Assembly (NCBI GenBank): GCA_913044145.1
Contig: CAJWOD010000001.1
Location: 1 to 32,916, forward strand
Direction: 5' to 3'
DNA: 32,916 nt
Origin: an uncultured Nitrospina sp.
Lineage (GTDB): Bacteria > Nitrospinota > Nitrospinia > Nitrospinales > VA-1
Shown here: piece by piece, positions 390 to 28,429 of the stretch
How positions within the stretch are numbered: position 1 is the stretch's first letter
Layout: every line of letters starts with the position of its first letter
Program-made: the position numbers and the translations under genes
Notes under the pieces: generated by a model
What the model saw: the letters and a program-made list of their open reading frames with translations, nothing else
The model's database searches: none
Told to the model about the DNA's origin: nothing

Positions 390-728
390 TTGCTCACACA
401 AGCGCAGAATCAGATTATTTATCTTATGTTTTTGAATGGTCTGCTTTTTTTGGGTCTAAATTTTATTGCTTATTCAATAATTTTTCCAGGCCCAAAAGGC
501 TCCAAACGAATAGGCTATATGTTTATTACTTGTGGGTTTCTGGCTTACCTGGTGCAACAAATTTATCAGGGCATGCTTGCTCTTGATTACCCGCAAGAAA
601 ATGTGAGCGGATTAATTTTAAGTGGTTTAGTGATACCCGTTTTTTTTACATCAATATTTTATTACCGAATCAAACGCAACCGAATAGAGAAAGAACAACA
701 AACAAAAATTAAGGAAAGTAATGATTGA
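390..728 (+). CDS. Small integral membrane protein, unknown function
   Basis: 112-aa ORF with about three hydrophobic segments and a basic/acidic C-terminal tail. It has a TTG start at 390 (alternative ATG at 426) and no clear SD. Its 3' end overlaps the ltaE start by 8 nt (ATGATTGA), suggesting co-transcription or coupling. Confidence 0.4.
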   Translation: MLTQAQNQIIYLMFLNGLLFLGLNFIAYSIIFPGPKGSKRIGYMFITCGFLAYLVQQIYQGMLALDYPQENVSGLILSGLVIPVFFTSIFYYRIKRNRIEKEQQTKIKESND

Positions 729-1755
729 TCTAAGAAGCGATACCTTCACTTATCCTACAAAATCCATGCGCGAAGCTATGGCAATGGCCGAAGTTGGAGA
801 CGATGTTTTTCAAGAAGATCCTACCGTCAAAAAGCTTGAAACCTTAGCCGCTGAAAAAACTGGAAAAGAAGCAGCCCTTTTCGTCCCCAGCGGTACTATG
901 GGAAATCTGATTAGCGTGCTCAGCCATTGCCATCGAGGCGATGAGATTTTACTTGGGGACAAAAGCCATATATCCCTTTATGAGGTAGGTGGAGTTTCTG
1001 CTTTGGGAGGGATCCATCCGCGCACCCTACCCAATAATAATGATGGAACCATTTCCATAGAAATATTGGAAAAAGGAATCCGGCACTTAGATATTCATTC
1101 CCCGCCAACTCGCTTGATTTGTCTAGAAAACACCCATAACTTCTGCCAAGGATCACCCCTTCACCCTGATTACATGATGATCGTTGGGGATCTGGCAAAG
1201 AAATATGGATTAAAAATCCATATCGACGGAGCAAGAATCTTTAACGCAGCTGTGGCTCTGAAAGTGCCTGTTTCAAAATTAACGGAGCAAGCAGACTCGG
1301 TAATGTTTTGCCTTTCGAAAGGACTTTCTGCACCCGTGGGTTCACTGGTTTGTGGGTCGGCGGAGTTTATTGACAAAGCTAGAAAAGTCCGAAAAATGGT
1401 GGGCGGGGGAATGAGACAGGCCGGACATATTGCTGCCGCTGGAATAATCTCCTTAGTCAATCTAGTAGATAGGCTTCAGGAAGACCACGAAAACGCAAAA
1501 ATGCTCGCAACCCAAATATCTGATATGAAGGGAATTGAATTAGACAAATCCAATATAAAAACAAATATAATATTCTTCAAATTGAAGGGATTGGATGGGA
1601 ATTTATTCCTCCAACAGTTGGAAAAAAAACAAATCAAAATTCTTATGACCGATACTGATGCGGGTATTTTTCGTGCTGTTTTACATCGTGATGTGTCAAA
1701 AAAACAAGTAGAAACTGTTATCAAGTCCTTTGAATCTATATTAGGTAAGGAATGA
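721..1755 (+). CDS. ltaE: Low-specificity L-threonine aldolase (PLP-dependent, beta-eliminating lyase family)
   Basis: The N-terminal DLRSDTFTYPT motif, SGTMGN, and the PLP-lysine context FCLSKGLSAPVGS are typical of threonine aldolases. Length is 344 aa. A purine-rich AAGGAAAG lies upstream of the ATG. Confidence 0.85.
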   Translation: MIDLRSDTFTYPTKSMREAMAMAEVGDDVFQEDPTVKKLETLAAEKTGKEAALFVPSGTMGNLISVLSHCHRGDEILLGDKSHISLYEVGGVSALGGIHPRTLPNNNDGTISIEILEKGIRHLDIHSPPTRLICLENTHNFCQGSPLHPDYMMIVGDLAKKYGLKIHIDGARIFNAAVALKVPVSKLTEQADSVMFCLSKGLSAPVGSLVCGSAEFIDKARKVRKMVGGGMRQAGHIAAAGIISLVNLVDRLQEDHENAKMLATQISDMKGIELDKSNIKTNIIFFKLKGLDGNLFLQQLEKKQIKILMTDTDAGIFRAVLHRDVSKKQVETVIKSFESILGKE

Positions 1756-1768
1756 AGTTTAATGTTAT

Positions 1769-1796
1769 TTGACAGTTTCCTAGATTTCTCTATAAT
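1769..1796 (+). promoter_or_regulatory. Near-consensus sigma70-type promoter upstream of rpoZ (TTGACA-N16-TATAAT)
   Basis: TTGACA is at 1769..1774, followed by a 16-nt spacer and TATAAT at 1791..1796. This places it about 30 nt upstream of the rpoZ ATG at 1827 and directly after the ltaE stop. Confidence 0.5.
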
Positions 1797-1826
1797 GATC
1801 TGGAACTTTAACTAAACAGGAATATC

Positions 1827-2063
1827 ATGATCGAATTAGAAATGCAGGACAGAATGGAACTGGTTCGTGAGGCACAAGATGTTGTCAAAAGTCGGTATCT
1901 CTTATGTATCTTGGTTGCTCAGCGAATTCATCAATTAGAAAATGGTGCCGAACCTACCATTGAATGTGACCCAGAGGATCATAATAATCCGAAAATGTTC
2001 TTTGAAATGGCTTTAAGAGAAATTATAGATGGCAATATGGATCTAGAACAGGTTACAATGTAA
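1827..2063 (+). CDS. rpoZ: DNA-directed RNA polymerase omega subunit
   Basis: 78 aa. SRYLLCILVAQRIHQLENG matches the conserved omega helix (N/S-R-Y/F-x-L-V-x-x-A-x-R-A-x-Q-L). The downstream MALREIIDGNM matches the IALREI..G motif. Confidence 0.65.
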   Translation: MIELEMQDRMELVREAQDVVKSRYLLCILVAQRIHQLENGAEPTIECDPEDHNNPKMFFEMALREIIDGNMDLEQVTM

Positions 2064-2259
2064 GAAGAATTGCTCCCCCAAGGCAACCCGCCCAAAGTAA
2101 TTAAAAGTTTAAAAGCTAATACCACTTACACTCATACTTGACCTCAAAATGTTTTTATCCAACGCAAGTGGTCTTTAATACTGAAGACTTGGGTAATCGA
2201 TCGGTCTAAAATAGTAAATATTTTTTGGCTTTTCTATTTCGGGAAAGGCTAGTACTAAT

Positions 2260-2922
2260 TTATTTGGGCTGGGCTGATTTGGCACATCTAAATCCGACGT
2301 TAAATAAACGAGATTTAGCATAAATGCTCATACGACTGCTCGGGGTTATTAAGTTAGCTGAGACATTAAAGGCTCCACCCATTACCACTCTTTTATCAAG
2401 TGTTTCACCTGAATATTCGCTTAGCTTAGCATCTGCAGTTGATGTCCACTCCCAAACATTGCCCGCTGTGTCGAATAACCCAAAAGGGTTTGGTTGTTTT
2501 TGGCCGACTGGGTGGTGACCAAGATCGTAATCTCCTCCATACCAAGCATAAGCCGCATCAGGTTTTTTACCCCAAAAATATTTTGTATTTGTTTGACCTT
2601 TTGCTGCTTTTTCCCACTCTTCTTGACTAGGCAACCTTTTACCTATTTTTTTACAATATGATGCGGCCTTATACCAAGTTATTTGCTCAGCAGGATGATT
2701 TTCACCTTTAAAAGAAAAATTTGCTCTTCCCATAACTTCCTTATACTTTTGTTGCGTAACTTCAGTCTTGTCAATATAGAAAGTATCAAGATCAATTAAT
2801 CTTTTTGATGTCCCGGCCTTGGGTTTTCCATGGGGTATTAAGGCCATCTCAGTTTCATTTCCAAAAAGATTTGCAGGGAGAAAGACTATTAGTATTAAAA
2901 TTGATATTATATGTCTTAGCAT
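2260..2922 (-). CDS. Secreted FGE-sulfatase domain protein (SUMF1/formylglycine-generating-enzyme family)
   Basis: 220 aa with an N-terminal signal peptide (ILILIVFLPANLFG). Family-typical motifs are ITWYKAASYCKKIGKRLPSQEEWEKAA, HPVGQKQPNPFGLFDTAGNVWEWT, GGAF and the C-terminal VGFRCAK. Confidence 0.75.
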   Translation of the reverse strand: MLRHIISILILIVFLPANLFGNETEMALIPHGKPKAGTSKRLIDLDTFYIDKTEVTQQKYKEVMGRANFSFKGENHPAEQITWYKAASYCKKIGKRLPSQEEWEKAAKGQTNTKYFWGKKPDAAYAWYGGDYDLGHHPVGQKQPNPFGLFDTAGNVWEWTSTADAKLSEYSGETLDKRVVMGGAFNVSANLITPSSRMSIYAKSRLFNVGFRCAKSAQPK

Positions 2923-2925
2923 ATA

Positions 2926-3075
2926 TTAAAATTTATTTTTATCGTCTTTTCTTTTTGATTTTGGGAAGTTTTTAGAAGAACCTGAAATCTTCAAAAATCC
3001 ACGTAATATAACCAACCCTACAATGATATAAACTATACTATAAAGTATGTAGTTTGCTTTATCTGGTATAGACAT
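2926..3075 (-). CDS. Hand-found 49-aa single-pass membrane protein
   Basis: Manual translation gives MSIPDKANYILYSIVYIIVGLVILRGFLKISGSSKNFPKSKRKDDKNKF*. A strong SD (GGAGG) sits 7 nt upstream of the ATG at 3075..3073. There is one hydrophobic helix and a lysine-rich tail. The stop lies 3 nt before the start of the FGE-like gene. It is below the ORF-track size cutoff. Confidence 0.45.
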   Translation of the reverse strand: MSIPDKANYILYSIVYIIVGLVILRGFLKISGSSKNFPKSKRKDDKNKF

Positions 3076-3121
3076 TTTTTAACCTCCATACTACATATTC
3101 TCCAGTTTCCTAGCTTTAAAC

Positions 3122-3151
3122 AAAAAAAAACCCGCCGAAAATTTCGGCGGG
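3122..3151 (-). terminator. Rho-independent terminator closing the cytochrome operon
   Basis: A perfect 10-bp GC-rich stem pairs CCCGCCGAAA (3131..3140) with TTTCGGCGGG (3142..3151). On the minus strand it is followed by a run of nine U (plus-strand A-run at 3122..3130). It begins 25 nt after the stop at 3176. Confidence 0.75.
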
Positions 3152-3175
3152 CTTTCTTTTAAAAACTTCTAATGA

Positions 3176-4939
3176 CTATTTAGGAAGCTCGTCACGCTGG
3201 ACCTTCCCTTCGTCATACATTTTCCGTGTTCGCTTTGTCATCCATACCAACCAACCCTGGAAGCAGATGAAAACTGCTGCAATGATTGGAGGCATGTAGT
3301 AAAGCGACGCAGGTAACGCAGGTTTCAGAATGGTGTAATACCATGTCGAGATAGCCATATGCTCATCATGCTCTTTATCCCAACCTGCCCATTGCATGAA
3401 ACTAACTGGAATGAACTGTTCAGAAGGAATCTGAACATCATCCGCACCTTCCGTCGTTAATGACCGCTTGAACATAACTTTGACACGACCCTGATGGAAA
3501 ATGGAGTCAACAACTTCAACTTTTCCTTCAGATTCTTTCTCAGAAATTGCATCAAAACCGTTACCTTTGAATTCTTGTACGGTTACGTCCAATTGATAGC
3601 CTTTTTCATTGGGCGGATTAGTCGCGTTATAATCCTTAGCCAAGAAGTTAGCCTTCCAAACGTCAACCGGCTTCTTAGAATCTCCATAGATAAAATACGG
3701 TTTTTCAGCGCCAAAAAGATCTTGTAATTGCCCCGGCCATTGGATTGCTACGGCATCGGGATATTCCGGATCCGTTGACAAGAACCTATTGTCGAATTCA
3801 ACAAGGTAGTAGACAGCATTTTCCTCTGCGCTCCATCGTGAACTTACCCAGAGGTTATCTGTTTTAGGGTCGAAATTACGTTTTCCCCTAGTGATCTGAC
3901 CCGCCATTGCGATGTAATGCCTCATTGGATTCTCAATCGTCTCTTCGGAAAGAGGAACAATTCTGTGATCCGTATATGAGGACTGCCAGCTTGGGTCATC
4001 AATTTTTGGAACCACCGGACCCTCTGTATAAACAGACTGAATAAGAAAGTCAGGAACTGGTTTGTTAGTCAGTGGGTCAATTTTCTTTCGCGGGCAAAGT
4101 GAGTTTACAAACGCCGCAACTTGCCAACGCTCCTTACCGGTCATCTGCTCCCGAAAGTTTGGCATAGGTGAACCATTCAAACCCGTCGAAATGGTACGGG
4201 CAACATTGAATGGATTAAAAGGATCACGGCGAGCTCCTCGGAAGTTCCAGCATTCCTGCCAGTTTGCTGCAACAATCGGGAAACCCCAATCATCCTTCAT
4301 GGTTGGGTTACCATCTCCTCGACCCTCGCCACCATGACACTCCATGCATTTATTTTTAATGAAGAGTTCCTTACCCGCATCAATATGCTCTTGAGGAACC
4401 CCTAGGTGGTATGGTCCTTTAGTCGCTGCCCATGGGGCATCTCCGAGTGGTCCTTTTCCATTATCAGCCGCTATACCGGTGATAACATTATTCACTTCTT
4501 CATCTTCAGTGTCATCAAAGGATCGATCCTGGACCAGAGTTTTTACAAAATTCACGACAGCTACGATTTCATCCTCCGACAAAAACTCACCCCAGGCAGG
4601 CATTGCTGAGCCCTGGAGGCCATTTTTTACGGTTTTGATTAAATCTGATTCCATTGGGAGCTCCCCTGAATCCGTTGTGCGGATTTTGAAAGTTCCCTGG
4701 ATGAAGTTACGTGGTCGAGTGTACAGACGTTCTGCAGAAGGGCCATCACCACCTCCTTCTACCCCGTGACACCAGACACAACGTTTAAAATAAACCTTCT
4801 TTCCCTTTTCTAGCAGGTCTTTTTTGACTCCATCCGGCACACCGGCAAATACTGCCCCCGGTGCTGCGAACAACGCCACTGCCAGAAAAAACATAAATAG
4901 GCGTTTGATGTAGTTATTATTTGTCATGGTCATTTCCAT
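3176..4939 (-). CDS. Dihaem c-type cytochrome fused to an EB_dh/NxrC-like (type II DMSO-reductase gamma-subunit-type) domain, with a C-terminal TM anchor
   Basis: Two CxxCH motifs are present (CVWCH, CMECH). The C-terminal half carries AVAIQWP...PYFIYGDSKKPVDVWKANF and IPVSFMQWAGWDKEHDEHMAISTWYY, resembling the ethylbenzene-dehydrogenase gamma (EB_dh) fold family. The terminal hydrophobic helix is PPIIAAVFICFQGWLVWM. The track ORF extends to a TTG at 5044. However, the signal peptide (MTNNNYIKRLFMFFLAVALFAAPGAVFA) follows Met36/38/40 and the upstream gene ends at 4971, so I place the start at 4939 (or 4933/4927). Confidence 0.75.
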   Translation of the reverse strand: MEMTMTNNNYIKRLFMFFLAVALFAAPGAVFAGVPDGVKKDLLEKGKKVYFKRCVWCHGVEGGGDGPSAERLYTRPRNFIQGTFKIRTTDSGELPMESDLIKTVKNGLQGSAMPAWGEFLSEDEIVAVVNFVKTLVQDRSFDDTEDEEVNNVITGIAADNGKGPLGDAPWAATKGPYHLGVPQEHIDAGKELFIKNKCMECHGGEGRGDGNPTMKDDWGFPIVAANWQECWNFRGARRDPFNPFNVARTISTGLNGSPMPNFREQMTGKERWQVAAFVNSLCPRKKIDPLTNKPVPDFLIQSVYTEGPVVPKIDDPSWQSSYTDHRIVPLSEETIENPMRHYIAMAGQITRGKRNFDPKTDNLWVSSRWSAEENAVYYLVEFDNRFLSTDPEYPDAVAIQWPGQLQDLFGAEKPYFIYGDSKKPVDVWKANFLAKDYNATNPPNEKGYQLDVTVQEFKGNGFDAISEKESEGKVEVVDSIFHQGRVKVMFKRSLTTEGADDVQIPSEQFIPVSFMQWAGWDKEHDEHMAISTWYYTILKPALPASLYYMPPIIAAVFICFQGWLVWMTKRTRKMYDEGKVQRDELPK

Positions 4940-4970
4940 ATGTTTAGGTTTAGTAACCGTTAAGTTCAAG

Positions 4971-5948
4971 TTATTCCCCACCACCTGAGGTAGAACCTTC
5001 TGTACCAAATGTTCGTGGATGCCAGCCTGTGTACCAATATTCAAACAGGATAACCTTCCAGATCTCCTCGGTTTTTAAATGCTCTTCCCATGGGGGCATT
5101 GCTGAAGACCAGGGGGTAGATTCGTTAGGTAGACCAGGTCCGCCCTTAGACACCCGCCAGAACAGAAATGCTTCCTGCAACATAGCAATGGTACCTGGAT
5201 CAATAAAGTTTGCAGGGGTGGGATTGAACACATGTGAGAACATTCCCAGCCCATTCAACTGATCCCCATGACAGTAATGGCAGTTCTGAAAGAAAATCGT
5301 GCCGCCTTCCGTCACATACTTCATGTACTCATGCTTATCCGCATCGAGAAATGGAAAACTATCTTTGTAGTTATCCTGCTCATCTATACGGAAAGGATTA
5401 TTAGTTGATTCCAGGGGATAAGTCTTGCCATGCACCTTAGTGGTAGCAGGAGGTGCGGGGTGAACCGTCCTCAACTCAACCGGTTCCTGGAAACTCGGAT
5501 AAATCGTGTTATACGTTGCGAACCCTACCAGGATCGGTAAAGCCGTAAAAACAACGATTCGTGCGAGTTTATACTCACCTATAATTGTTTTAACAATAGG
5601 AGCCCTGAATTCCCGAAAAGTCTCTGGATCCTGACTGATATAAAGAAAGGTTCCGATAGACCACATCACCATGTACGTAATAAACAGTGTCCAGGGAATG
5701 TGCGGATACAAAACATAATCATAAAAATAGAACCCAACTGACCAGACAAAAAGCCCTTTAAGAGAAACCGGGGGACTCAGCCTGAGCAATAGGTGCGTAA
5801 TGATCAAATACGCTACAAACAACAAAAAGTAAACGTATCTGTTAAGAATCCAGCCGACCTCCTTCGGTGTAAAAATAGGAAAAATAGCGTTATGAAACAC
5901 CGCTAGGCCGACAACAAATACCAAAAAGCTTACTAAATTTTTATTCAT
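4971..5948 (-). CDS. Polytopic membrane protein with a C-terminal monohaem class-I cytochrome c domain
   Basis: About five N-terminal hydrophobic helices precede a cytochrome c domain (FFQNCHYCHGDQLNGLG ... SSAMPPWEEHLKTEEIWKVILFEY), which is CcoP/class-I-like. The SD AGGAG lies upstream of the ATG at 5948. Confidence 0.75.
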   Translation of the reverse strand: MNKNLVSFLVFVVGLAVFHNAIFPIFTPKEVGWILNRYVYFLLFVAYLIITHLLLRLSPPVSLKGLFVWSVGFYFYDYVLYPHIPWTLFITYMVMWSIGTFLYISQDPETFREFRAPIVKTIIGEYKLARIVVFTALPILVGFATYNTIYPSFQEPVELRTVHPAPPATTKVHGKTYPLESTNNPFRIDEQDNYKDSFPFLDADKHEYMKYVTEGGTIFFQNCHYCHGDQLNGLGMFSHVFNPTPANFIDPGTIAMLQEAFLFWRVSKGGPGLPNESTPWSSAMPPWEEHLKTEEIWKVILFEYWYTGWHPRTFGTEGSTSGGGE

Positions 5949-5962
5949 TGCTGTCTCCTAAA

Positions 5963-7336
5963 TTAACTGCCAGCCGGGGGTTCGGTCTGACTAATAAAAT
6001 CCACAAGCTTATCGAGAGCCCGAACTGATAGCTGCTCCCCAAAGGTTGTGGGCATTAACCCATCCGGATATGATTCTCCGGCTTCTTCATTAAATACCAC
6101 ATAACACCCAGGGCACAGGATTGATTCCTTTACATATTCCTTGGTGTTCGTTGCTTTTCCTTTATAATTTGGATCTTTGATCCGTTCCGGCGCATTAATT
6201 TTCTCATGAAGTTTCGGCCCCAACTCACCAACCGCACCTTCAACGCCCGGAATCGTGTGACAAAGCGGACAACCCAGTGTGTTGATCATTGTCTGGATAT
6301 CCTCATTACCCGTCACGAAAACGGGGCCTTCCTCCTCATCTCCACCACTATCCTCCTCTACAACAGCACCACCGGTATTACCGGCATCATCCTGAGGTAA
6401 AGGAACGGTCACCGACGCAAATTCGCCCGGCGTATCCTTGGATTGAAGATAAGCGACTACAGCGTTTACCTCAACGCGACTCAAACTGATTGGCGGCTTG
6501 ACGATGACAGGCATTGGACTCTTAGTATCGTTAGCCTTACCAAAACCTTTTACCACATAACAGGTCGGACACATTAAAGACTCACGGAGGTAATCTTCTC
6601 CGATAAATTCATCCGGGCCACCTGCACGTCGATACTCTTCCGGTACCTCATCATGCTTACCCTTAACAATTCCAGAGGCTGGTTCTACTTCACCAACCGC
6701 CACAGGGCTTGTCGCATACCTATCCTCTTTTACGCGATCGTGACTTCTTTTCTCAACACCAAAAAGGTTTGGACAACGACCCATATGATCGCCAGGGTCG
6801 AAGGTGTGACAAAGAGGACACTGACCTTTTCCGATAGATTTCTGACCGGCAACCTGTTTGGCGCCAAAAATAATTACGCGCCCCATTTCAGCAAATTCTT
6901 CCATGGTCATATCACCCACAACCGCTGCTTCCTTGGGGGGTGGGTCAGATCGCTGTTGCGGCAACCAGTTGGTATAGCCCGCAAGCAGAACCGAAATTGT
7001 AGTATAGAAGAAAAAGGCTCTAATAATCGGTGCGGACTGCCTTTCAATTTTATTACTCTTGAAGAAAACTCCCCAAACCAACAACATAAAGAGAATAGTC
7101 CAAAGATAAGTTGAGAAAAAGAATACTAATTGATCTCCTTGAACAAGGCTGAACATATGCACGGTCATCAAAAAACAGGTGATGGCCATCGCCCCAAAAA
7201 TACCACCCCAGAGAGTCGAGTTAATTCCCTCCCTTTCTCTACAATGCTGGATAACATTGCCGAAAACATAAAGAGCAAATACGGCAAACATTATCGACAA
7301 AAATGAAAATAATATGTCATGCTGCTCTGGTAACAT
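5963..7336 (-). CDS. Membrane-anchored dihaem c-type cytochrome with an internally duplicated haem module
   Basis: About four N-terminal hydrophobic helices are followed by two homologous modules. Each contains CPLCH, then ES(L/I)xCPxCYVV, then MP, then an LS...(Y/F)(L/I) tail. An acidic/Gly-rich linker (VVEEDSGGDEEEG) separates them. A strong SD (GGAGGAAGGG) lies upstream of the ATG at 7336. Confidence 0.75.
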   Translation of the reverse strand: MLPEQHDILFSFLSIMFAVFALYVFGNVIQHCREREGINSTLWGGIFGAMAITCFLMTVHMFSLVQGDQLVFFFSTYLWTILFMLLVWGVFFKSNKIERQSAPIIRAFFFYTTISVLLAGYTNWLPQQRSDPPPKEAAVVGDMTMEEFAEMGRVIIFGAKQVAGQKSIGKGQCPLCHTFDPGDHMGRCPNLFGVEKRSHDRVKEDRYATSPVAVGEVEPASGIVKGKHDEVPEEYRRAGGPDEFIGEDYLRESLMCPTCYVVKGFGKANDTKSPMPVIVKPPISLSRVEVNAVVAYLQSKDTPGEFASVTVPLPQDDAGNTGGAVVEEDSGGDEEEGPVFVTGNEDIQTMINTLGCPLCHTIPGVEGAVGELGPKLHEKINAPERIKDPNYKGKATNTKEYVKESILCPGCYVVFNEEAGESYPDGLMPTTFGEQLSVRALDKLVDFISQTEPPAGS

Positions 7337-7420
7337 TTTTTCCCTTCCTCCTATACCCTCAGATTAAATCAGGGTTGAGCACCACATTATTTCGCGGCAC
7401 TCAACCCAAATCGATAATTG

Positions 7421-9394
7421 TTATTGTTGTTGCTGCGCAGGAACCGGAACTCCTTCAGGCGCCTTAGCTGGGATTTTCTTGGCTGTCAAACTACCCACCC
7501 AGAAAACCACAACGAACTGAACCCAAACAAATAAGGCGTTGAAGGTAAGCATTTTACCCGCTTCACCAATTGTCAGAGTATAGGCATCTACTGAGTTATC
7601 ACGAACAACCTCCGTTACGTGCCAGAACAATCGCACAGAGGAACGGATATAACCCATGAGACCCATCAACCAAGTGAAGGAAATCGCTAGAAGGAAAATA
7701 GCGTATGTTCCAACCTTAGACTGCGTGCCCCACTGGATATCACCATAAGATTCCGAATCCTTGAACATGGAGATATTGATCGCAGTACCCGCAAACAGAG
7801 TCGTAAGAGTAGATGTTACCTGAGGTACGGAAAGACCAACCCGCTGGTTAGCAGGAAGAAAGTAACCATACACGCCCAGGAAGATAATATTGGCAGCAGC
7901 ACCAATGAAGATCGCTGTAATCCAACAATTACCCACGGTTGCCCATGGCACCGTGATCTTCTTGTTCGCCCTTTGATACAGTAGAAAACAAAGAACCGTA
8001 CAGGTGATCATCAGGTTAACCGCTGTATTCTTAGCTGACATTACACCAAAGTGTCCAACGACTGGATGCTGCGCACCCCCCATTTCTTTCAACTCAGCGG
8101 GGGTCATAACTATGGTATGAGGCGTCATCCACATGGTGAAACAACAGATCAAGAGCAGAACCATGTACTTACAATATTTCATATATCGATGCGATCCCTT
8201 AACCCTCGCCATACCATTGTGCAGATATGAATTCGCGCCGAAGAAAAGCAGACCAATCATTACCGCTTGGATGATGAACAACCAAGCCATGATTCCACCC
8301 ATCAGGGTAATACCCATTTGCTGACGGAACGCATACACTTCTTTCATCAACCAATACCCTGCGAAAGGCAACGGGATCAAACCGAATATCGCAATAAACA
8401 TCGCGACATAACAAACCCAATCGTAATGAGCTTTCTCCTCTTCATTTTTAGCTGTGAGGTAATGGTACGCGGCATAAGCACCAACGATTCCACCCCCGAA
8501 TACAATGTTTCCGAGAATACGATGAACCCCAACTGGGTTCCAAAGCGTGGAATGAATGACATGCCAGATATTTCCCAGAAAACGACCTTCCGAATCAATT
8601 CCACCAGGGGCCTGCATGAAAGTAGCCCAAGAGTTGGCGAGATACATCAGCACCGTTCCGATCAGGTTGAGTAGAACCGAAAGACTACAATGGATCCACT
8701 TAAGGAACTTATCGTCCATCATTTTATCCCAACCATAATAATAAACATAAAGAACACCGGATTCTGCCAAGAACATGAGCGCATAAACGTGCATTACAGG
8801 ACGGAAAATACCTGCCATGTATTTGAAGAACCCAGGAAATAATGTGATAAATGTAAAGAGAAGAATACCCCCAAGAATTGCGGTCCATGAATATGCAGTC
8901 AGACTGACCTTCATGAGGTCTCTGGCTAACCGATCATACTTATCAGCCATCACAGGATCGTCGTCTCTGGTTCTAATTCCGATAAATTCTATGATCATAC
9001 AGAATATCGGTACCGCCAGAACGAAGCTACCAAAGTAGAGGTGTTGTTGGTTTGCAACCCAAAGAATGATTCGACTAGGTGCGAACTCATAAGTATTGTA
9101 GTCTTCCGGGCCTAATTCCGGCGCCGCATAGCCACTAACCGGCCCTTTTAGCGGATTACCTTCCCAGTCCTTATAAAAAACGTCCTGGCTCCACTCAATT
9201 TCCGGTTCGCCTTCGCCTTCAACAGCCTCTTCTGCCTGAACCTCTTTAGCAAAAGCCTCTTCAGCGAAAACTTGCTCTGCAAATGCCTCTTTGGCATCTG
9301 CAATGCCGGTCATTCCTGGAATCAGGTATATGGCTAGCGCCAAAACCAACCCCAGTGACAATGTCCCGATACTACGTGTGTTTTTCCCCAACAT
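7421..9394 (-). CDS. Cytochrome bd-like oxidase subunit (CydA homologue; no CydB partner in the window)
   Basis: 657 aa with about 13-14 hydrophobic segments. By-eye matches to E. coli CydA (recalled from memory) are listed next. QQHLYFGSFVLAVPIF matches AMYHFLFVPLTLGM (His19 region). ALMFLAESGVLYVYYYGWDKM matches [21 protein letters not shown] (Glu99 region). LMYLANSWATFMQAP matches LWILVANGWMQNP. NPVGVHRILGNIVFGG matches NPVAQVKFVHTVASGY (His186 region). The SD AAGGAGG lies upstream of the ATG at 9394. Confidence 0.75.
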   Translation of the reverse strand: MLGKNTRSIGTLSLGLVLALAIYLIPGMTGIADAKEAFAEQVFAEEAFAKEVQAEEAVEGEGEPEIEWSQDVFYKDWEGNPLKGPVSGYAAPELGPEDYNTYEFAPSRIILWVANQQHLYFGSFVLAVPIFCMIIEFIGIRTRDDDPVMADKYDRLARDLMKVSLTAYSWTAILGGILLFTFITLFPGFFKYMAGIFRPVMHVYALMFLAESGVLYVYYYGWDKMMDDKFLKWIHCSLSVLLNLIGTVLMYLANSWATFMQAPGGIDSEGRFLGNIWHVIHSTLWNPVGVHRILGNIVFGGGIVGAYAAYHYLTAKNEEEKAHYDWVCYVAMFIAIFGLIPLPFAGYWLMKEVYAFRQQMGITLMGGIMAWLFIIQAVMIGLLFFGANSYLHNGMARVKGSHRYMKYCKYMVLLLICCFTMWMTPHTIVMTPAELKEMGGAQHPVVGHFGVMSAKNTAVNLMITCTVLCFLLYQRANKKITVPWATVGNCWITAIFIGAAANIIFLGVYGYFLPANQRVGLSVPQVTSTLTTLFAGTAINISMFKDSESYGDIQWGTQSKVGTYAIFLLAISFTWLMGLMGYIRSSVRLFWHVTEVVRDNSVDAYTLTIGEAGKMLTFNALFVWVQFVVVFWVGSLTAKKIPAKAPEGVPVPAQQQQ

Positions 9395-18205: not shown

Positions 18206-19099
18206 TCAGTGAGCAGCCGAATGCGAACCGGAAAGGATCTGGTTTATTTTGAGGGTGGAGACGATGTGGGTGTCCATTCCCAGTTGTGTGGGTGTGTAGC
18301 CCAATGCCAGAGCCACCAGTTGCGGTAAGTGCAGGATGGGAATGGATTGGTTTTTCTTTTGCAATAATTCGATTTCCGGTTGATAAGAATCGAGGCTCAG
18401 GTGACAGAGCGGACATCCAGTGGCAACGACATCGGCACCATGTTCGATCGCATCCTGCAATGCATTACCTGACATACCTAAAGATGCATCCTTGTTCATC
18501 ATCACGATAGGAAAACCGCAACATTTGGTACGACTAGGATAATAAATCGGGGTTGCGCCCAAGGCTTCAAAGATATCTTCCATCCCTGTTGGGTTGTCTG
18601 GATTATCAAAGTCAGATCGTTCGGACGGACGCAGAACATAACAACCGTAAAAGGCTGCAACCTTTAATCCGGTCAAAGGACGCTTGATGCGAGACTTTAA
18701 TCTTGCCATTCCCTCTTCGGTTGCCAGGATGTTAGCAAAATGTTTGATTCTTGTTTTTCCATTGTACTGATGCCCCCCCTCTTCGAGGATGTCGTTGACT
18801 TTTTCTTTATACTCTTTACTTTCGTTTAAATGTGCTTCGGTTTTTTTTAAGGTCCCCTGACAGGTTGAACAAATAGTGACAATATCCAAACCCTGTTTTT
18901 CAGCGATGGAGAACGAACGCGCGTTTAAAGCATCTGCCAATAGTGGGCTCTTTTCGGAAACCACTCCCGCACCACAACAGGACGCGCTTTTCATTTCTAC
19001 AAAATCAAAGCCTAGGCCTTCCGCTGCTTTGGTTGTGGAGAGCATCAACTCTCGGGTCGCCCCTTTGGCGACACATCCGGTAAAAAGGGCAAACTTCAT
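18206..19099 (-). CDS. sdhE: CCG-domain (HdrB/SdhE-like) subunit of a type-E succinate dehydrogenase/fumarate reductase
   Basis: Two cysteine-rich CCG repeats are present. The first is FTGC...SASCCGAG...ICSTCQG and the second is FYGC...RTKCCGFP...ATGCPLCH. The start overlaps the sdhB stop (ATGA at 19096..19099). Confidence 0.75.
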
Positions 19100-20037
19100 T
19101 GATCCAACTCCTTGAATATACGTTTTACATCACGAACCTCTTCAATAGAATGATGAAGGATTGGTGGAACTTTTCCTTTGAGTAACATTCTGAGCCCAAC
19201 CGGAATCAAGCTGAGCAGTCCGGGGATATTAAAAATTCCCATCGACTCCACGGGAATTCTGTTTTCGTTTAGATTGCCGCTCCTCTTAACTGAATTAGTG
19301 AAGGACAGTGCGTGACGCGCACCATTATTGTTATGAACACCTTCCTCCAATGCCACGGTCATGATTTCTTTGATGCGATCGAAAGGACGTGCCGGTTTCG
19401 GGCAGCGTTCTACACATTCGGCACAATGGGTGCAATCCCAAATCCCTCCTGGCTCACTTAAGTCCTGTACGCGTTGCAGGGTTTTAGAGTCGCGGGAATC
19501 GCCGACAAACCGTTGCGCTTTTGCCAAAGCTGCAGGCCCGAGGAAATTATCATCCACTTCCAGAGTGTTGCAGTCGGAATAGCAGGCACCGCACATGATG
19601 CAAGTACTAGCGTCATCAATGACTAAAAACTCTTCCTGCGACTGACGTCTTTCTTTTACCGGTGGCTCTTCTTTTGGCTCCAGATAAGGTTTTATTTTAT
19701 TCACTTTGTCCCAGAACGGTGTGAAGTCTACTACCAGATCTTTTACTGGTTTCATATTACCGAGAGGTTCTAAAGTAATAGTATCGTTGTTATCCACAAG
19801 GTGTTCCGCCTGTCGTTGGCAAGCCAGTAAGGCATGACCGTTTGACTTGACTGCACACGAGCCACAGATTGCACTTCGGCACGACATCCTATAAGAAAGG
19901 CTGCCATCAAGAGTCCACTTGATCTGGTTCATACAATCCAGGAGCGTGGCACCATCGGGAATATCCAGTTGAAACTCTTCGAAATAAGGCTCGGGCTGTT
20001 TTTCCGGATTGAATCGTTTGATTCTGAAAGTTGCCAT
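19096..20037 (-). CDS. sdhB: Succinate dehydrogenase/fumarate reductase iron-sulfur subunit
   Basis: The 2Fe-2S motif is CRSAICGSC...[12 protein letters not shown] is a CxxCxxCxxxC motif, and [12 protein letters not shown] is a full CxxCxxCxxxCP motif. A C-terminal extension of about 80 aa is present. The track start is a TTG at 20040. The ATG at 20037 overlaps the sdhA stop (TGATG) and is the likely start. Confidence 0.88.
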
Positions 20038-21746
20038 CAATAAGTTCTTTCAGCAGGTTGATATTTAGTAATCACTACGGGTTTGGTTTTTATGACCAAT
20101 CCATCTGGAGAATCGTAGACCATGGAGTGATACAAGAATTTTTTATCATCTCGCTTTGGGAAGTCAGTACGATAATGCCCACCACGGCTTTCCCGTCGTT
20201 CCAATGCGGCTGTGGCTATAATTACTGCCATACCCAACATATTTCCTAACTCCATAATTTCATAAATTTCTGTATTGAACAATTTTCCTTTATCCGTTAC
20301 TTTACCTTTTTTGAACCGTTCCTGAAGCCCTTTGAGAGTTTCGATGCAGGTTTTAAGTCTTTGCTCATCGCGGAAAACACCGCAATGGGACATCATAATT
20401 TCTTTCATTTCGTCGCGAATCTGGTTGTAACTTTCGCTCCCCTCTCTTTGGAATATATCTTCAAATTTCTCTAAGACCCTTGCTTTTTCCTGTCCTTCAT
20501 TAACATTGCCAAAGTCCCTACCTCTGGCATATTCGAGGACAGATTTACCTGCACGTTCACCAAACACCACTGCATCAAGGAGAGAATTGGTTCCCAATCG
20601 GTTGCCACCATGAACAGAAACACATGCACATTCACCTGCCGCAAAAAAACCATGCATCTTTGTTCCTTCAGAATCGAGGATAACGTGACAATTATTATCC
20701 ACAGGAATACCTCCCATGGAATAATGTGCAGTGGGTTGAATAGGCAGAGGATCGGTAACGCAATCAATACCGAGAAAGTCGATTGCCAATTGTCGAATTT
20801 GCGGTAGGCGTTCCATGATTCGTGCTTCGCCCAGATGTCGAAGATCGAGATGAATACAATCTTCACCGTTGATGCCACGTCCCGCATCCATTTCACTTTG
20901 CTCTGCACGAGCCACAATATCGCGCGGTGCCAATTCCATTCTGGAGGGAGCATAAGTTTCCATGAACCGCTCGCCTTTATCATTGAGAAGGTAAGCACCT
21001 TCGCCACGAGCCGCCTCAGAAAATAAAATTCCTTGTCGGTATAACCCTGAAGGATGAAACTGCACAAATTCCGGATCTTCTAAAGGAATGCCAACCTCAA
21101 AAGCTGCCATCACGCCATCCGCGGTACTGGCAAAAGCATTTGATGTAATTTTAAATACTCGGCCATAACCTCCGGTACAAAAGACCACAGCTTTAGCCCG
21201 GATAACTTCGACTTCACCGGTTTGAATATTACTTACAATCACACCGTTACACTGGTCACCATCGATCACCAGAGAATGCATATACCACTCATTATAAATT
21301 TTAACGGATCTGGAGTTTTTCATCAGCTGCTCATGAAGAGCATGTAAAATCGCATGACCGGTTCGATCAGCGGAGAAGCAGGCGCGAGGCTTTGAATGAC
21401 CACCAAAGCTACGTTGAGCGATCTTTCCTTCTGGGGTGCGACTGAAAACACAACCCATGTGCTCTAGCTCATAGATAATTCTGGGTGCCGCCTTGACATA
21501 TTCCTCGACCGCATCCTGATCGTTTAGAAAATCACCGCCTTTGACGGTATCAAACATGTGTTCTTCCCAGCTATCCGGCTCAGAATTTCCAAGAGAAGCC
21601 GCAATGCCGCCTTGGGCTGCTCCAGAATGCGAACGGGAAGGATAAACCTTGGTCAATACGGCTACATCGAGTTCTTTACAAGCCTCAAGAGCGCATCGCA
21701 TTCCTGCAAGACCAGCACCGACGATCACCACATCATGTTGAATCAC
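20037..21746 (-). CDS. sdhA: Succinate dehydrogenase/fumarate reductase flavoprotein subunit
   Basis: The FAD fold motif is [15 protein letters not shown], and the covalent-FAD histidine context is [27 protein letters not shown] and [13 protein letters not shown] are also present. It has a GTG start with the SD GAGGTG 6 nt upstream, and no twin-arginine signal. Confidence 0.92.
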
Positions 21747-25502: not shown

Positions 25503-26870
25503 TTAAGGTTCCAGCGTCACATAATATCCCTGCCGCCCTCTTTGTACCAGCAGCAAAATACGATCTGGGTTATTTAGATTAGCGATGGATTTATTATAAT
25601 CCTCTTCAGTATCAATACGATCTTGATCCACTTGCCGGATAACATCTCCTGGGCCAATTCCTATTCTATCGCTAGCACTTTTAGATACTACATTAACGAC
25701 CACCATCCCTTTGCTGGTTCCCAAGCGATTTCTCCTAGCAAAATGTGGGTTATTTTGCTGAACCTGTAGACCTAGCCAGTCACGCGTAAACTCTGCAACA
25801 TACTGTTTTGGAATTGAGATAACTTGGACATCGACCTCTAGGTTTTTCCCATTTCGCAAAATTGAAAAGCGAACTTTATCGTCGACAGCATAAGAAGCCA
25901 TTCGGGCATGAAAGTCAGATTTGTTTATCACTTCGTGATTTTCAATTGCCAAAATTATATCGCTGCGCTTTATCCCTGCAACCTCTGCTGGGCTTTTCCG
26001 AGCAATACGAACCACCAACACCCCTTTTTTTCGATCGAGTTGAAAGTGGCGGGATAGTTGCGCATCCATTCCCTGTACCGATACTCCCAACCAACCTCGT
26101 CGCACTTTTCCAAATCGAATCAGTTCATCAACAATTCGTTTAGCATCGTCAATGGGGATGGCAAAACCAATGCCTTCTGCCTTATGGTAAATGGCCGTAT
26201 TTATACCAATTAAGGATCCATTGATATTTAAAAGAGGGCCACCACTGTTCCCGGGGTTGATAGATGCGTCCACCTGAATAAAATCGCTGTACACCTTATT
26301 TTTATCAACTCTTATATTTCTATTTAAGGCACTGATTATTCCGGTCGTCACGGTATGGCGCAAACCAAATGGGTTTCCAATGGCAAGAACTTGTTCGCCT
26401 ATCATCAAATCGTCAGAACGTCCCATTGGGATAAAAGGTAAAAACTGATCGGAATCTATTTTAATAATTGCAAGATCAGATTTCATGTCCGCCCCTATCA
26501 CTCGCGCCTTAAACTCCCGTTTATCACCCAAAGCCACATTAATTTCTGATGCCCGTGCCACGACATGCTCGTTGGTAATAATATATCCTTCTTTATTTAT
26601 AAGGACTCCTGAACCCAGACTTTTTTTATTGTTTTGATTTTGTGAAAAGAAATCGTTAAAAAATTGGTCAAAAATATTATTTCCAAAATTTCTAAAAGGA
26701 TTACGAGGGGAACGACCCGTTTCAGAGGTATAAATATTTACAACGGCGGGGCTTACTTTTTCTGCAGCGACAACAAGGGGTGTTCTGCGCTTATTTAACT
26801 CCCTTGCCAGACCGGAGGACGCATCAAGCAAAACGAAACACAAAAAAAACCAAAGCCAATAGATGCGCAC
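25503..26870 (-). CDS. htrA: HtrA/DegP-family periplasmic serine protease with two PDZ domains (paralogue 1)
   Basis: It has a signal peptide and the catalytic triad contexts TNEHVV, SDLAIIKI and GNSGGPLLN. Two PDZ-like regions are present (RRGWLGV..., WLGLQV...). It has a GTG start. The stop lies 1 nt before the ligA ATG. Confidence 0.85.
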   Translation of the reverse strand: MRIYWLWFFLCFVLLDASSGLARELNKRRTPLVVAAEKVSPAVVNIYTSETGRSPRNPFRNFGNNIFDQFFNDFFSQNQNNKKSLGSGVLINKEGYIITNEHVVARASEINVALGDKREFKARVIGADMKSDLAIIKIDSDQFLPFIPMGRSDDLMIGEQVLAIGNPFGLRHTVTTGIISALNRNIRVDKNKVYSDFIQVDASINPGNSGGPLLNINGSLIGINTAIYHKAEGIGFAIPIDDAKRIVDELIRFGKVRRGWLGVSVQGMDAQLSRHFQLDRKKGVLVVRIARKSPAEVAGIKRSDIILAIENHEVINKSDFHARMASYAVDDKVRFSILRNGKNLEVDVQVISIPKQYVAEFTRDWLGLQVQQNNPHFARRNRLGTSKGMVVVNVVSKSASDRIGIGPGDVIRQVDQDRIDTEEDYNKSIANLNNPDRILLLVQRGRQGYYVTLEP

Positions 26871-26901
26871 GTTAATATAAAAAAGAAGTTATAAGTAATT
26901 T

Positions 26902-26934
26902 GTAGGGAAAGCCAGATAGTCTAGCTTTCCCTAC
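26902..26934 (-). terminator. Strong intercistronic hairpin between the two HtrA genes (terminator/attenuator or mRNA-stability element)
   Basis: An 11-bp perfect stem pairs GTAGGGAAAGC (26902..26912) with GCTTTCCCTAC (26924..26934), with an 11-nt loop. No U-run follows immediately on the minus strand, so it is not a canonical intrinsic terminator. Confidence 0.45.
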
Positions 26935-26956
26935 TTTATCTTAGACAAGATATCTT

Positions 26957-28429
26957 CTATCCAACTTTAACAGCTATATAAATGGTTGTGCCCCCCCTTT
27001 TAACAAGAAATAGAACAGAATCACCTGTTTTTATAGAGCCCGATAAACGTTCGTAATCTTTCATGTTAGTGATGGGGTTACGATTCATTTCTGAAATAAC
27101 ATCTCCTCGGCGAATTCCAGACTCTGCGGCAGAGTTGCCTGGTGTCACATCAGAAACTAAAACACCCTGATCATCTTTTAACTGTAGGCTTTTTGCCAAT
27201 TCCGGGGTAATCTCTTGAACTTGCATACCTAGGGGATCTGTTTTGGCCAATACAGTAGGTTGCTTGTCCGTAAGAGTTTCAATTTTTATACTCAAAGTTT
27301 TAGGAGAACCTTCACGGACAATCTCTACATTCACAACCGAATTGGGAGTTGTTGCGGCAACTATTTTTGGCAAGTCTTCCATATTTTTTACTTCTTTACC
27401 ATCAAACCTTACAATGACATCACCCCGCTTGATCCCTCCCTTGAATGCTGGACCATCTGGTATAACATCTCCTACCAAGGCTCCTTCACTCTGATTTAGC
27501 CCAAACGATTTGGCAAGTTCAGGGGTAATTTTTTGAATCATAACTCCTAGCCAGCCACGGGTTACCGTTCCTTTCTCCTTCAAGTCTTTTAAAATTCCCT
27601 TTGCAATATTAATAGGTATGGCAAATCCAATACCCACATTACCACCGCTATTACCTGAGATAATCGCAGTATTAATTCCGATTACTTCACCTTCTATATT
27701 AATCAAAGGGCCGCCGCTATTACCAGGGTTAATTGATGCATCAGTCTGTATAAATTCATCATAGGGACCCGCGCCAATACTTCTTCCTAAAGCACTCACT
27801 ACTCCTACTGTAACGGTATGGCTAAGACCAAAAGGATTTCCAATGGCCACGACCCATTCACCTACTTCAAGATGTTCAGAGCTTCCTAATCTCAAAAATG
27901 GAAATTCTTTAGGGGTATTTTCATCACGATTAATCTTAATTAAAGCAATATCAGTTTTAGTGTCAGCACCGATCAAGGTGGCGGTATATTCTTTTTCGCT
28001 ACCCCCATCCTCCAGGCTAACGATGATCTCCTCCGCTCCTTCTATTACATGATTGTTAGTGAGGATATGACCTTCTTTATCTATTACAAACCCTGACCCC
28101 ATGCCGCGTTTGGGTTTTTGGTTAGGTCGTTCCCCAAAAAACTTGTCATAAAAATCGCGAAAAGAGTCAGGTGAACGTCTCTGACCGGGACCTGGTCGGC
28201 CACCTCCAGGAGGACGAAAATTCCTGTGTGTTTTTTCTATTTTTGATTTTGTGCTGACATTTACCACTGCGGGATCCAGCTTCTTAGCAATATTCACGAA
28301 TAAGTTGCTTGAGAGTGGTTGTGCAGTACTGCTCAATGCAAACGAATATTTAGGGGTGGAAATTATGGAAAAGATAAAAAGAAAAATTGTGCCGGCTGAA
28401 CGAAAAAAAAGATGGAAAGATTTGTGCAT
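26957..28429 (-). CDS. htrA: HtrA/DegP-family periplasmic serine protease with two PDZ domains (paralogue 2)
   Basis: 490 aa with a signal peptide. The triad contexts are TNNHVI, TDIALIKI and GNSGGPLIN. There are two PDZ domains (RGWLGVMIQ..., PLGMQVQE...). Confidence 0.88.
   Translation of the reverse strand: MHKSFHLFFRSAGTIFLFIFSIISTPKYSFALSSTAQPLSSNLFVNIAKKLDPAVVNVSTKSKIEKTHRNFRPPGGGRPGPGQRRSPDSFRDFYDKFFGERPNQKPKRGMGSGFVIDKEGHILTNNHVIEGAEEIIVSLEDGGSEKEYTATLIGADTKTDIALIKINRDENTPKEFPFLRLGSSEHLEVGEWVVAIGNPFGLSHTVTVGVVSALGRSIGAGPYDEFIQTDASINPGNSGGPLINIEGEVIGINTAIISGNSGGNVGIGFAIPINIAKGILKDLKEKGTVTRGWLGVMIQKITPELAKSFGLNQSEGALVGDVIPDGPAFKGGIKRGDVIVRFDGKEVKNMEDLPKIVAATTPNSVVNVEIVREGSPKTLSIKIETLTDKQPTVLAKTDPLGMQVQEITPELAKSLQLKDDQGVLVSDVTPGNSAAESGIRRGDVISEMNRNPITNMKDYERLSGSIKTGDSVLFLVKRGGTTIYIAVKVG

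Follow-up and report, generated by a model that had tools for sequence, protein, structure and literature searches.

A putative alternative NxrC in a highly transcribed bd-like operon of an uncultured marine Nitrospinota bacterium carries substitutions at both haem-b ligand positions of its NxrC-like domain

Nitrospinota are the ocean's main nitrite oxidisers, and both the transfer of electrons from their nitrite oxidoreductase (NXR) to the membrane and the O2 reducer of those members that have no haem-copper oxidase are unsolved (PMC8026999, PMC10839748). A gene cluster that bears on these questions encodes a cytochrome bd-like protein and an 'alternative NxrC' (alt_NxrC) and is common to Nitrospina, Nitrospira and Kuenenia (Lücker 2013, PMC3578206). 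In N. gracilis, alt_nxrC1 (NITGRv1_920005) encodes a protein of 576 amino acids (aa) with '2 haem c-binding domains' and lies three genes from the bd-like gene NITGRv1_920008 as 'part of NXR module' (Lücker 2013, Table S1, PMC3578206). Its counterpart in N. moscoviensis, alt_nxrC_2 (NITMOv2_3640), encodes a 66.8-kDa dihaem cytochrome c with one signal peptide and one transmembrane (TM) helix, shares a cluster with bd-like_3 and the genes of two membrane cytochromes c, belongs to the 40 most transcribed genes, and was suggested to act as an anchor point for NXR or as a route to the quinone pool (Mundinger 2019, PMC6606698). The same conserved cluster was found in new Nitrospinae without haem-copper oxidases (Mueller 2020, PMC8026999), and the bd-like proteins have been placed in the OR-N family, which has no quinol site and whose operons hold 'alternative electron donors' (Murali et al. 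2021); the OR-N1/N2 proteins of Nitrospinota are discussed as putative cytochrome-c-oxidising O2 reductases. Here we describe a gene of this kind at positions 3176-4939 (minus strand) of a 32,916-nt stretch of DNA, referred to below as the window, from an uncultured Nitrospina sp. (GenBank assembly GCA_913044145.1, contig CAJWOD010000001.1). Its product joins two haem-c domains to an NxrC-like domain in which the residues aligned with both haem-b ligands are replaced.

The gene runs from an ATG at 4939 to a stop codon ending at 3176 and encodes 587 aa; all features of the gene and its operon given below lie on the minus strand. A mechanically called open reading frame (ORF) of 622 aa starts at TTG 5044 and would run into the upstream gene, which terminates about 30 nt 5' of the ATG at 4939. 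Together, the ORF, its motifs, Pfam and NCBIfam searches, and an AlphaFold2 (AF2) model compared by Foldseek (59 sequences, pLDDT 84.3, pTM 0.82) define a signal peptide, two haem-c domains, an EB_dh/NxrC-like beta-sandwich and a C-terminal TM anchor. The Sec-type signal peptide (residues 1-33, 4841-4939), with cleavage inferred between …AAPGAVFAG and VPDG, is indicated by hydropathy (hydrophobic sequence at residues 10-38) and by a model helix at 9-25. At the other end, the TM anchor (residues ~545-570, 3230-3307) appears as a hydrophobic segment at 541-568 and as an AF2 helix at 545-576; it is followed by a basic, predicted cytoplasmic tail (KRTRK), and such a segment is found in most family members. 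A preliminary description of the locus, made from the sequence alone, had proposed this three-part architecture of dihaem cytochrome c, EB_dh/NxrC-type domain and membrane anchor, and motifs, Pfam, hydropathy and the AF2 model bear it out.

More than 2,333 homologues were found, the best of which all come from metagenome-assembled genomes (MAGs) and single-amplified genomes of marine Nitrospinota, and the close relatives that carry an organism label are at most 87% identical to the target. A full HMMER search with the C-terminal half against 1.84 billion 50%-identity representatives returned 261 clusters at E≤0.001. Among the best 150 of these, about 60 have the signal peptide, two CxxCH motifs, EB_dh-like domain and C-terminal TM helix, while the remainder are stand-alone EB_dh-like proteins with a TM helix, or mono- and trihaem variants. 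In one locus (L035), two trihaem variants of about 745-765 aa (498-2792 and 6221-8452) flank a single bd-like gene and appear to fuse one separate cytochrome c onto the dihaem-EB_dh-TM protein. The fusion had been thought unusual, a view that did not survive, as it is the published 'alternative NxrC' (PMC3578206, PMC6606698, PMC8026999) and recurs across these clusters. The target itself has a signal peptide, two CxxCH motifs, a single C-terminal TM helix and a length within the range of about 500-600 aa, and it stands last in the order bd-like, cytochrome c, cytochrome c, alt_NxrC, as in NITGRv1_920005…920008. Its length, its place in the gene order and its 68-87% identity to proteins that bear the label Nitrospina sp. 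or Nitrospinota lead us to infer that it is an orthologue of the N. gracilis alt_nxrC1 / N. moscoviensis alt_NxrC_2 type. The fusion is therefore already known, and its published annotation in N. gracilis is limited to the haem-c domains; what is newly documented here is the EB_dh-like fold and the ligand substitutions.

The N-terminal half consists of two class-I cytochrome c domains, at residues 34-140 (4520-4840) and 181-285 (4085-4399). Both CxxCH motifs fall inside Pfam Cytochrom_C / Cytochrome_CBB3 domains (PF00034/PF13442, two stretches, E=2.4e-21), the best stretch covering residues 43/44-132/135 of the 587-aa protein, or 78/79-167/170 of the 622-aa ORF. The first motif is C54-x-x-C57-H58 (CVWCH, residues 54-58, nt 4766-4780) with Met113 as the distal residue, and the second is C198-x-x-C201-H202 (CMECH, residues 198-202, nt 4334-4348) with Met259. 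An alignment of 59 diverse homologues, the most distant at 27% identity, leaves nothing invariant in this half except the two CxxCH motifs, Met113, Met259, G59, G62, G107 and G189, and this pattern of CxxCH motifs and methionines matches the expectation for two His/Met c haems. Residues ~38-285 are moreover homologous as a unit to the Kuenenia dihaem cytochrome Kustc0457 (PDB 6h5l_B) by both sequence (phmmer E=9.5e-39) and fold (Foldseek E=1.6e-16, TM-score 0.83, 34% identity), so that motif, distal methionine and fold all place two copies of the class-I domain in this half.

The C-terminal half required a different kind of evidence. A default-threshold Pfam scan of the whole protein did not match EB_dh, and a search with the C-terminal half alone at a permissive E-value gave PF09459 only below its cut-off (E=0.0031, 18.0 bits where the gathering score is 33.3); TIGR03477 likewise stayed below cut-off for the target (E=1.2e-7, 31.2 bits against 169.85), and single-sequence phmmer against PDB sequences returned cytochromes c only, with no EB_dh protein or gamma subunit. 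The NxrC-type assignment of the single sequence is thus weak and was settled by a family profile together with the predicted fold. A profile of 26 family C-terminal domains matches NXR-C of K. stuttgartiensis (7b04_C, E=3.3e-26) and EbdC (2ivf_C, E=2.3e-20) among PDB sequences, with the next-best matches only at E=0.02, and Foldseek of the AF2 model retrieves the same two chains (7b04_C, E=6.2e-11; 2ivf_C, E=3.5e-10, TM-score 0.76 on the target). The significant Foldseek targets form three groups: the N-terminal half matches 6h5l_B, the C-terminal half 7b04_C and 2ivf_C; after the gamma subunits come the DOMON-type folds 4zel and 4qi3 (dopamine beta-hydroxylase and the cytochrome domain of cellobiose dehydrogenase). 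The beta-sandwich is assigned to residues 296-540 (3320-4054) and, judged by profile and model, is a true NXR-C homologue despite the misses by curated models. The preliminary description had compared this half with haem-b gamma subunits and had quoted two segments, beginning AVAIQWP and VSFMQWAGWD, as the resembling ones. Because the family profile and Foldseek are decisive, that observation is confirmed, and the quoted segments are the two blocks that the profile aligns with NXR-C and EbdC, although the PF09459 search it had recommended reaches only a sub-threshold match for the single sequence. Column conservation among close orthologues is 0.89 in the EB_dh-like domain versus 0.91-0.92 in the cytochrome c domains, and the conservation pattern indicates that the former is under purifying selection.

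In NXR-C the haem b is held by Met155 and Lys305, and in EbdC likewise by a Met and a Lys (PMC8387239). In the target, the column of the Met ligand (EbdC Met108, NXR-C Met155) is occupied by Tyr418 (codon 3686-3688, motif KPYFIYGD), and that of the Lys ligand (EbdC Lys201, NXR-C Lys305) by Met528 (His527-Met528 codons 3356-3361, motif DEHMAISTW); in the same alignment, Met and Lys were recovered for both EbdC and the Magnetoovum gamma subunit P0315. The suspicion that FIYGD stands where EbdC has its Met was therefore correct. Canonical haem-b ligation is absent from the target because Tyr418 and Met528 replace Met and Lys, which supports the earlier suggestion that haem-b binding may be altered or lost and extends it to the Lys ligand.

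In a set of 121 orthologues that are at least 77% identical, the two positions behave differently. Residue 418 is F in 60, Y in 27, M in 25, L in 7 and N in 2, within a loop (G410-K423) that is otherwise invariant save for a conservative S421A in 7 sequences (S421 is 94% conserved). A neighbour-joining tree implies at least 11 changes of residue 418 and none in the eight residues that precede it or the two that follow. His527 and Met528, by comparison, are each kept in 120 of the 121 (99%). A second hypervariable site, Met515 (3395-3397), is M, F or L with at least 16 changes in this set, and its neighbours F514 and Q516-W517 are invariant. Judging from these alignments, the canonical haem-b site is not preserved in the Nitrospinota clade and position 418 is no obligatory ligand, so that haem b there would be either lost or bound in an unusual manner by Met528 or His527. 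Across the family at large, R, M, H or K predominate in the 'Lys' column, and M stands in the 'Met' column of 34 of 133 aligned 50%-identity representatives and of 55 of 88 metagenome proteins. Plausible ligand pairs (M/M, M/H or M/K) occur in 39 of the 88 metagenome proteins. These pairs suggest that haem b is probably still bound by many members of the family, with differing distal ligands, and in view of them we dropped the idea that the EB_dh-like subfamily is generally haem-free; a haem-free domain remains a live option for the Nitrospinota clade alone. The alt_NxrC literature cited here contains no analysis of the haem-b ligands of this domain or of the link to aa3-type operons described below, and other studies may exist.

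Of the rival explanations, the one that survives best applies this option to the target: the EB_dh-like domain would be a haem-free structural or docking beta-sandwich and the protein a plain, anchored dihaem cytochrome c. We regard this as a serious possibility, though one that falls short of being probable. It would account for Tyr418 and Met528 in the ligand columns, for the repeated exchange at position 418 between ligating (M, perhaps Y) and non-ligating residues (F, L, N), for the sub-threshold EB_dh match of this clade, and for the annotation of N. gracilis alt_nxrC1 with two haem-c domains only; DOMON-type folds, besides, include non-haem, sugar-binding members. Set against it are the near-complete conservation of His527-Met528 at the Lys-ligand site, the plausible pairs in the wider family, and the point that a large hydrophobic side chain at 418 could also pack against a haem face. 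A more specific and, in our judgement, very improbable proposal is that the Nitrospinota domain keeps haem b on a single protein ligand (Met528 or His527) while the opposite face is covered by an exchangeable bulky residue at 418 (F/Y/M/L), leaving the iron five-coordinate or weakly six-coordinate. Were this so, the site could bind O2, NO or nitrite, or set an unusual redox potential, and the subunit would be more than a passive wire in a highly expressed bd-like complex.

The target is the last of four genes that lie on one strand with short gaps. The first (7421-9394) encodes a 657-aa cytochrome bd-like, OR-N-type CydA homologue with at least 10 hydrophobic segments (PF01654, E=1.2e-21), the match being limited to the N-terminal core (profile positions 3-239 of 418); the linkage to a bd-like membrane protein that had been noted from the sequence thus holds. 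The second (5963-7336) encodes a membrane-bound dihaem cytochrome c of 457 aa with CPLCH at 173 and 356, and the third (4971-5948) a membrane-bound monohaem cytochrome c of 325 aa with CHYCH at 223 and about three hydrophobic segments, which is syntenic in Nitrospinota. The 457-aa cytochrome contains an internal repeat in which each CPLCH is followed 52-83 residues on by a CxxCY (CPTCY at 256, CPGCY at 408). The region round the first CxxCY gives a local match (E=6e-8) to the 316-aa dihaem protein 7zs0_A, which we take to be Kustd1711 of Kuenenia. The haems of Kustd1711 lie at about +350 mV (PMC11791136).

Transcript data delimit this unit at both borders. Of the words sampled from the operon, 93% occur in one marine metatranscriptome and 85% in another. 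The depth of their RNA contigs, though a rough measure of expression, shows a clear step at either border of the operon within a single genome, and it is about 390-4,400 over 3270-9340. Flanking depth is 0-30 in most bins, 13-94 over hisD and up to about 95 just past the terminator, so that the operon stands about 20-100x above most flanking sequence. At its end lies an intrinsic terminator (3121-3151), flagged by a scan and confirmed in the sequence, in which a GC-rich hairpin (CCCGCCGAAA/TTTTCGGCGGG) is followed by T9, 25 nt past the stop codon; here the depth falls from about 530 to about 80. The four genes form one transcription unit that is very highly transcribed in situ, and the high transcription of the alt_NxrC and bd-like genes reported from N. 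moscoviensis is seen here as well. The gene directly downstream (2260-2922, minus strand) encodes a protein that has a signal sequence and an FGE-sulfatase (SUMF1-like) domain, and it is kept in this place in at least one relative (L003). We considered it as an operon member and ruled this out on account of the terminator and a ~20-70-fold drop in RNA depth (to 7-22 over this gene).

The gene order is conserved well beyond the window. Every Nitrospinota locus that extends far enough shows the four genes in synteny with hisD ahead of them, an arrangement seen in more than 20 Nitrospinota MAGs; across this group the bd-like protein is the most conserved, at 82-97% identity, and the target shows 69-87%. 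The order bd-like, cytochrome c, cytochrome c, fusion is retained in homologues of 27-35% identity (L030-L035 and L037, with Cyt_bd_oxida_I as the first gene in L032, L034, L035 and L037) and in 31 of the 35 metagenome loci, from a total of 80, that have at least 4.5 kb upstream. Among the 47 loci whose downstream flank is long enough, eight have another bd-like cluster behind the first, a tandem duplication also described for the bd-like cluster of Nitrospira (Mundinger 2019, PMC6606698). More frequent still, in 13 of these 47 loci, is the succession on one strand of the fusion, a CarboxypepD_reg-like gene and COX2-COX1(-COX3) of an aa3-type oxidase. A CarboxypepD_reg/fn3_3-like gene with an aa3 operon was recorded downstream of the fusion in L033, L036, L037, L040, L043, L079, L083, L084, L090, L098, L099, L106, L107, L110-L112 and L117; neither was found in the window.

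Neighbours of the type-II DMSO-reductase family, that is molybdenum (Mo) enzymes, occur in only four of the 80 loci. Two clusters of this kind are instructive. In Ca. Magnetoovum (L038), the bd-like gene and two cytochromes c are followed by TorD-like, Mo-alpha (1,147 aa), FeS-beta and EB_dh gamma genes. In L056, the complete module with its fusion gene precedes two cytochromes c, a Usp/PCP_red protein, a canonical EB_dh gamma (PF09459, E=7.6e-34), beta, a TorD-like protein and alpha; this separate gamma means that the fusion adds to a normal gamma and does not replace it. Proteins with Usp and PCP_red domains lie beside bd-like clusters in three unrelated loci (L032 10931-12535, L038 1-1636, L056 13567-14904), and L038 also has a radical-SAM/SPASM protein with a PCP_red domain. 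In the 32.9-kb window, a Pfam scan of all long ORFs, the largest of 668 and 657 aa, identified other families and no molybdopterin alpha or FeS beta gene, in agreement with the preliminary description. Its further statement that the gamma-like domain is wired to a bd-like protein instead of to alpha and beta subunits was an over-reading, given that the module also stands beside complete alpha-beta-gamma enzymes in L038 and L056. Since the aa3-type linkage is the commoner of the two in other phyla, the comparison favours a general high-potential module of respiration over one specific to NXR.

Taken together, these observations lead us to believe that the target is probably a periplasm-facing, C-terminally anchored cytochrome subunit of a four-subunit complex built round the OR-N-type bd-like protein. 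After Sec export and cleavage of the signal peptide, the protein would be held at the periplasmic face by its C-terminal helix, and its two high-potential His/Met c haems would form part of a five-haem-c wire (2 + 1 + 2) with the two co-transcribed membrane cytochromes. Such a wire could join a high-potential periplasmic donor, which may be a soluble or peripheral NxrABC acting directly or via a cytochrome c, to the haem-b-containing bd-like subunit. The NxrC-like beta-sandwich would then be a likely docking or electron-entry module, and haem b, if the domain binds it, would be held non-canonically through Met528 or His527. The two loci in which the module lies beside alpha-beta-gamma genes (L038, L056) support the link to NXR-type enzymes. 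Several points weigh against this interpretation. There is no protein-level evidence, here or in the cited literature, of a four-protein complex or of contact with NXR, and nxrAB were not found within the 32.9-kb window. Transcripts of alt_nxrC_2 are 2.5-4-fold below those of the NXR core genes, and a stoichiometric association has been questioned (Mundinger 2019, PMC6606698). The function of OR-N proteins, whether as O2 reductases or as quinone-interacting proteins, is itself only putative. Finally, in distant lineages the module adjoins an aa3-type operon more often than Mo-enzyme genes, so its role need not be specific to nitrite oxidation. The complex may serve O2 reduction, quinone exchange (in reverse electron flow or in the manner of alternative complex III, ACIII) or NXR anchoring.

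The frequent proximity of aa3-type operons raises a second alternative, namely that the target belongs to an ACIII-like quinol:cytochrome c oxidoreductase that would run in reverse in nitrite oxidisers, with the bd-like subunit exchanging electrons with the quinone pool and the three cytochromes, the target among them, relaying electrons in either direction between this subunit and cytochrome c with a haem-copper oxidase. ACIII gene clusters often lie beside caa3 oxidase genes in a similar fashion, and a role of this kind, or in reverse electron transport, was raised for the cluster early on (Lücker 2013, PMC3578206). The adjacency is, however, also compatible with a simple co-location of respiratory genes, no COX genes lie next to the operon in the window, and OR-N or bd-like proteins have neither the Q-loop nor the known quinol-binding residues, and we therefore hold this explanation to be on the whole unlikely. 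Less likely again is a true NXR gamma subunit with its own membrane anchor, whose EB_dh-like domain would bind NxrB in place of soluble NxrC, tether NxrAB to the membrane and pass electrons from the terminal FeS cluster through a bound haem b to its own c haems: homology to NXR-C and EbdC, earlier proposals of this role (Lücker 2013, Mundinger 2019; PMC3578206, PMC6606698), a 62-kDa band of fitting size in Nitrospira nitrite-oxidising particles, and the bd-like module immediately upstream of alpha-beta-gamma genes in L038 speak for it, but the canonical Met/Lys pair is missing and residue 418 varies freely, clusters that combine the fusion with a Mo enzyme also carry a separate canonical gamma (L056), alpha and beta are not nearby in most loci, and transcript stoichiometry in N. 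moscoviensis lies under that of NXR (PMC6606698).

Two further gene groups of the window, both on the minus strand, deserve mention. A three-gene succinate dehydrogenase/fumarate reductase (18206-21746) comprises a flavoprotein, a 2Fe-2S/4Fe-4S protein and a CCG-domain (HdrB-like) subunit, the last standing where a membrane cytochrome b would be expected; this would fit the reductive tricarboxylic acid cycle reported for Nitrospinota. Two tandem HtrA/DegP-type serine proteases, each with a trypsin-like domain and two PDZ domains, are encoded at 25503-28429.

The importance of the target rests on the role of the bd-like complex in the ocean's nitrite oxidisers and not on the novelty of the gene, which adds a further orthologue to a known but biochemically uncharacterised family. 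The bd-like operon is a standing candidate for both of the steps named at the outset, the hand-over of electrons from NXR and the reduction of O2, and in Nitrospinota without haem-copper oxidases the bd-like complex is the only candidate terminal oxidase.

Compared with the characterised proteins, the two halves of the target point to different relatives. With NXR-C of Kuenenia stuttgartiensis (7B04 chain C) and EbdC of Aromatoleum aromaticum (2IVF chain C), it has in common the beta-sandwich and two conserved sequence blocks. Those proteins are soluble, single-domain haem-b gamma subunits of type-II DMSO-reductase-family enzymes that are encoded together with alpha and beta, whereas the target has an N-terminal dihaem c module, a TM anchor, Tyr and Met at the ligand sites and no alpha or beta genes nearby. 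Kustc0457 of Kuenenia (PDB 6H5L chain B), the relative of the N-terminal half, is a free-standing 226-aa dihaem cytochrome c bound to the HAO-like octahaem protein Kustc0458; in the target, by contrast, the dihaem module is fused to the EB_dh-like domain and anchored in the membrane. The likeness to the OR-N family of the cytochrome bd superfamily, or 'cytochrome bd-like oxidase' of Nitrospira, Nitrospina and anammox bacteria, belongs to the neighbouring bd-like gene and not to the fusion: the match of that gene is limited to the N-terminal CydA core, its operon partners are cytochromes c as in other OR-N operons, and we take the OR-N label from the literature. The target corresponds most closely to alt_nxrC1 and alt_nxrC_2: like them it has a signal peptide, a pair of haem-c sites, a single C-terminal TM helix and a length of about 580 aa, it stands last in its cluster, behind the bd-like gene and those of two membrane cytochromes c, and it is very highly expressed. 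From these proteins it differs in nothing essential, and its source is an uncultured, low-GC marine member of the Nitrospinota.

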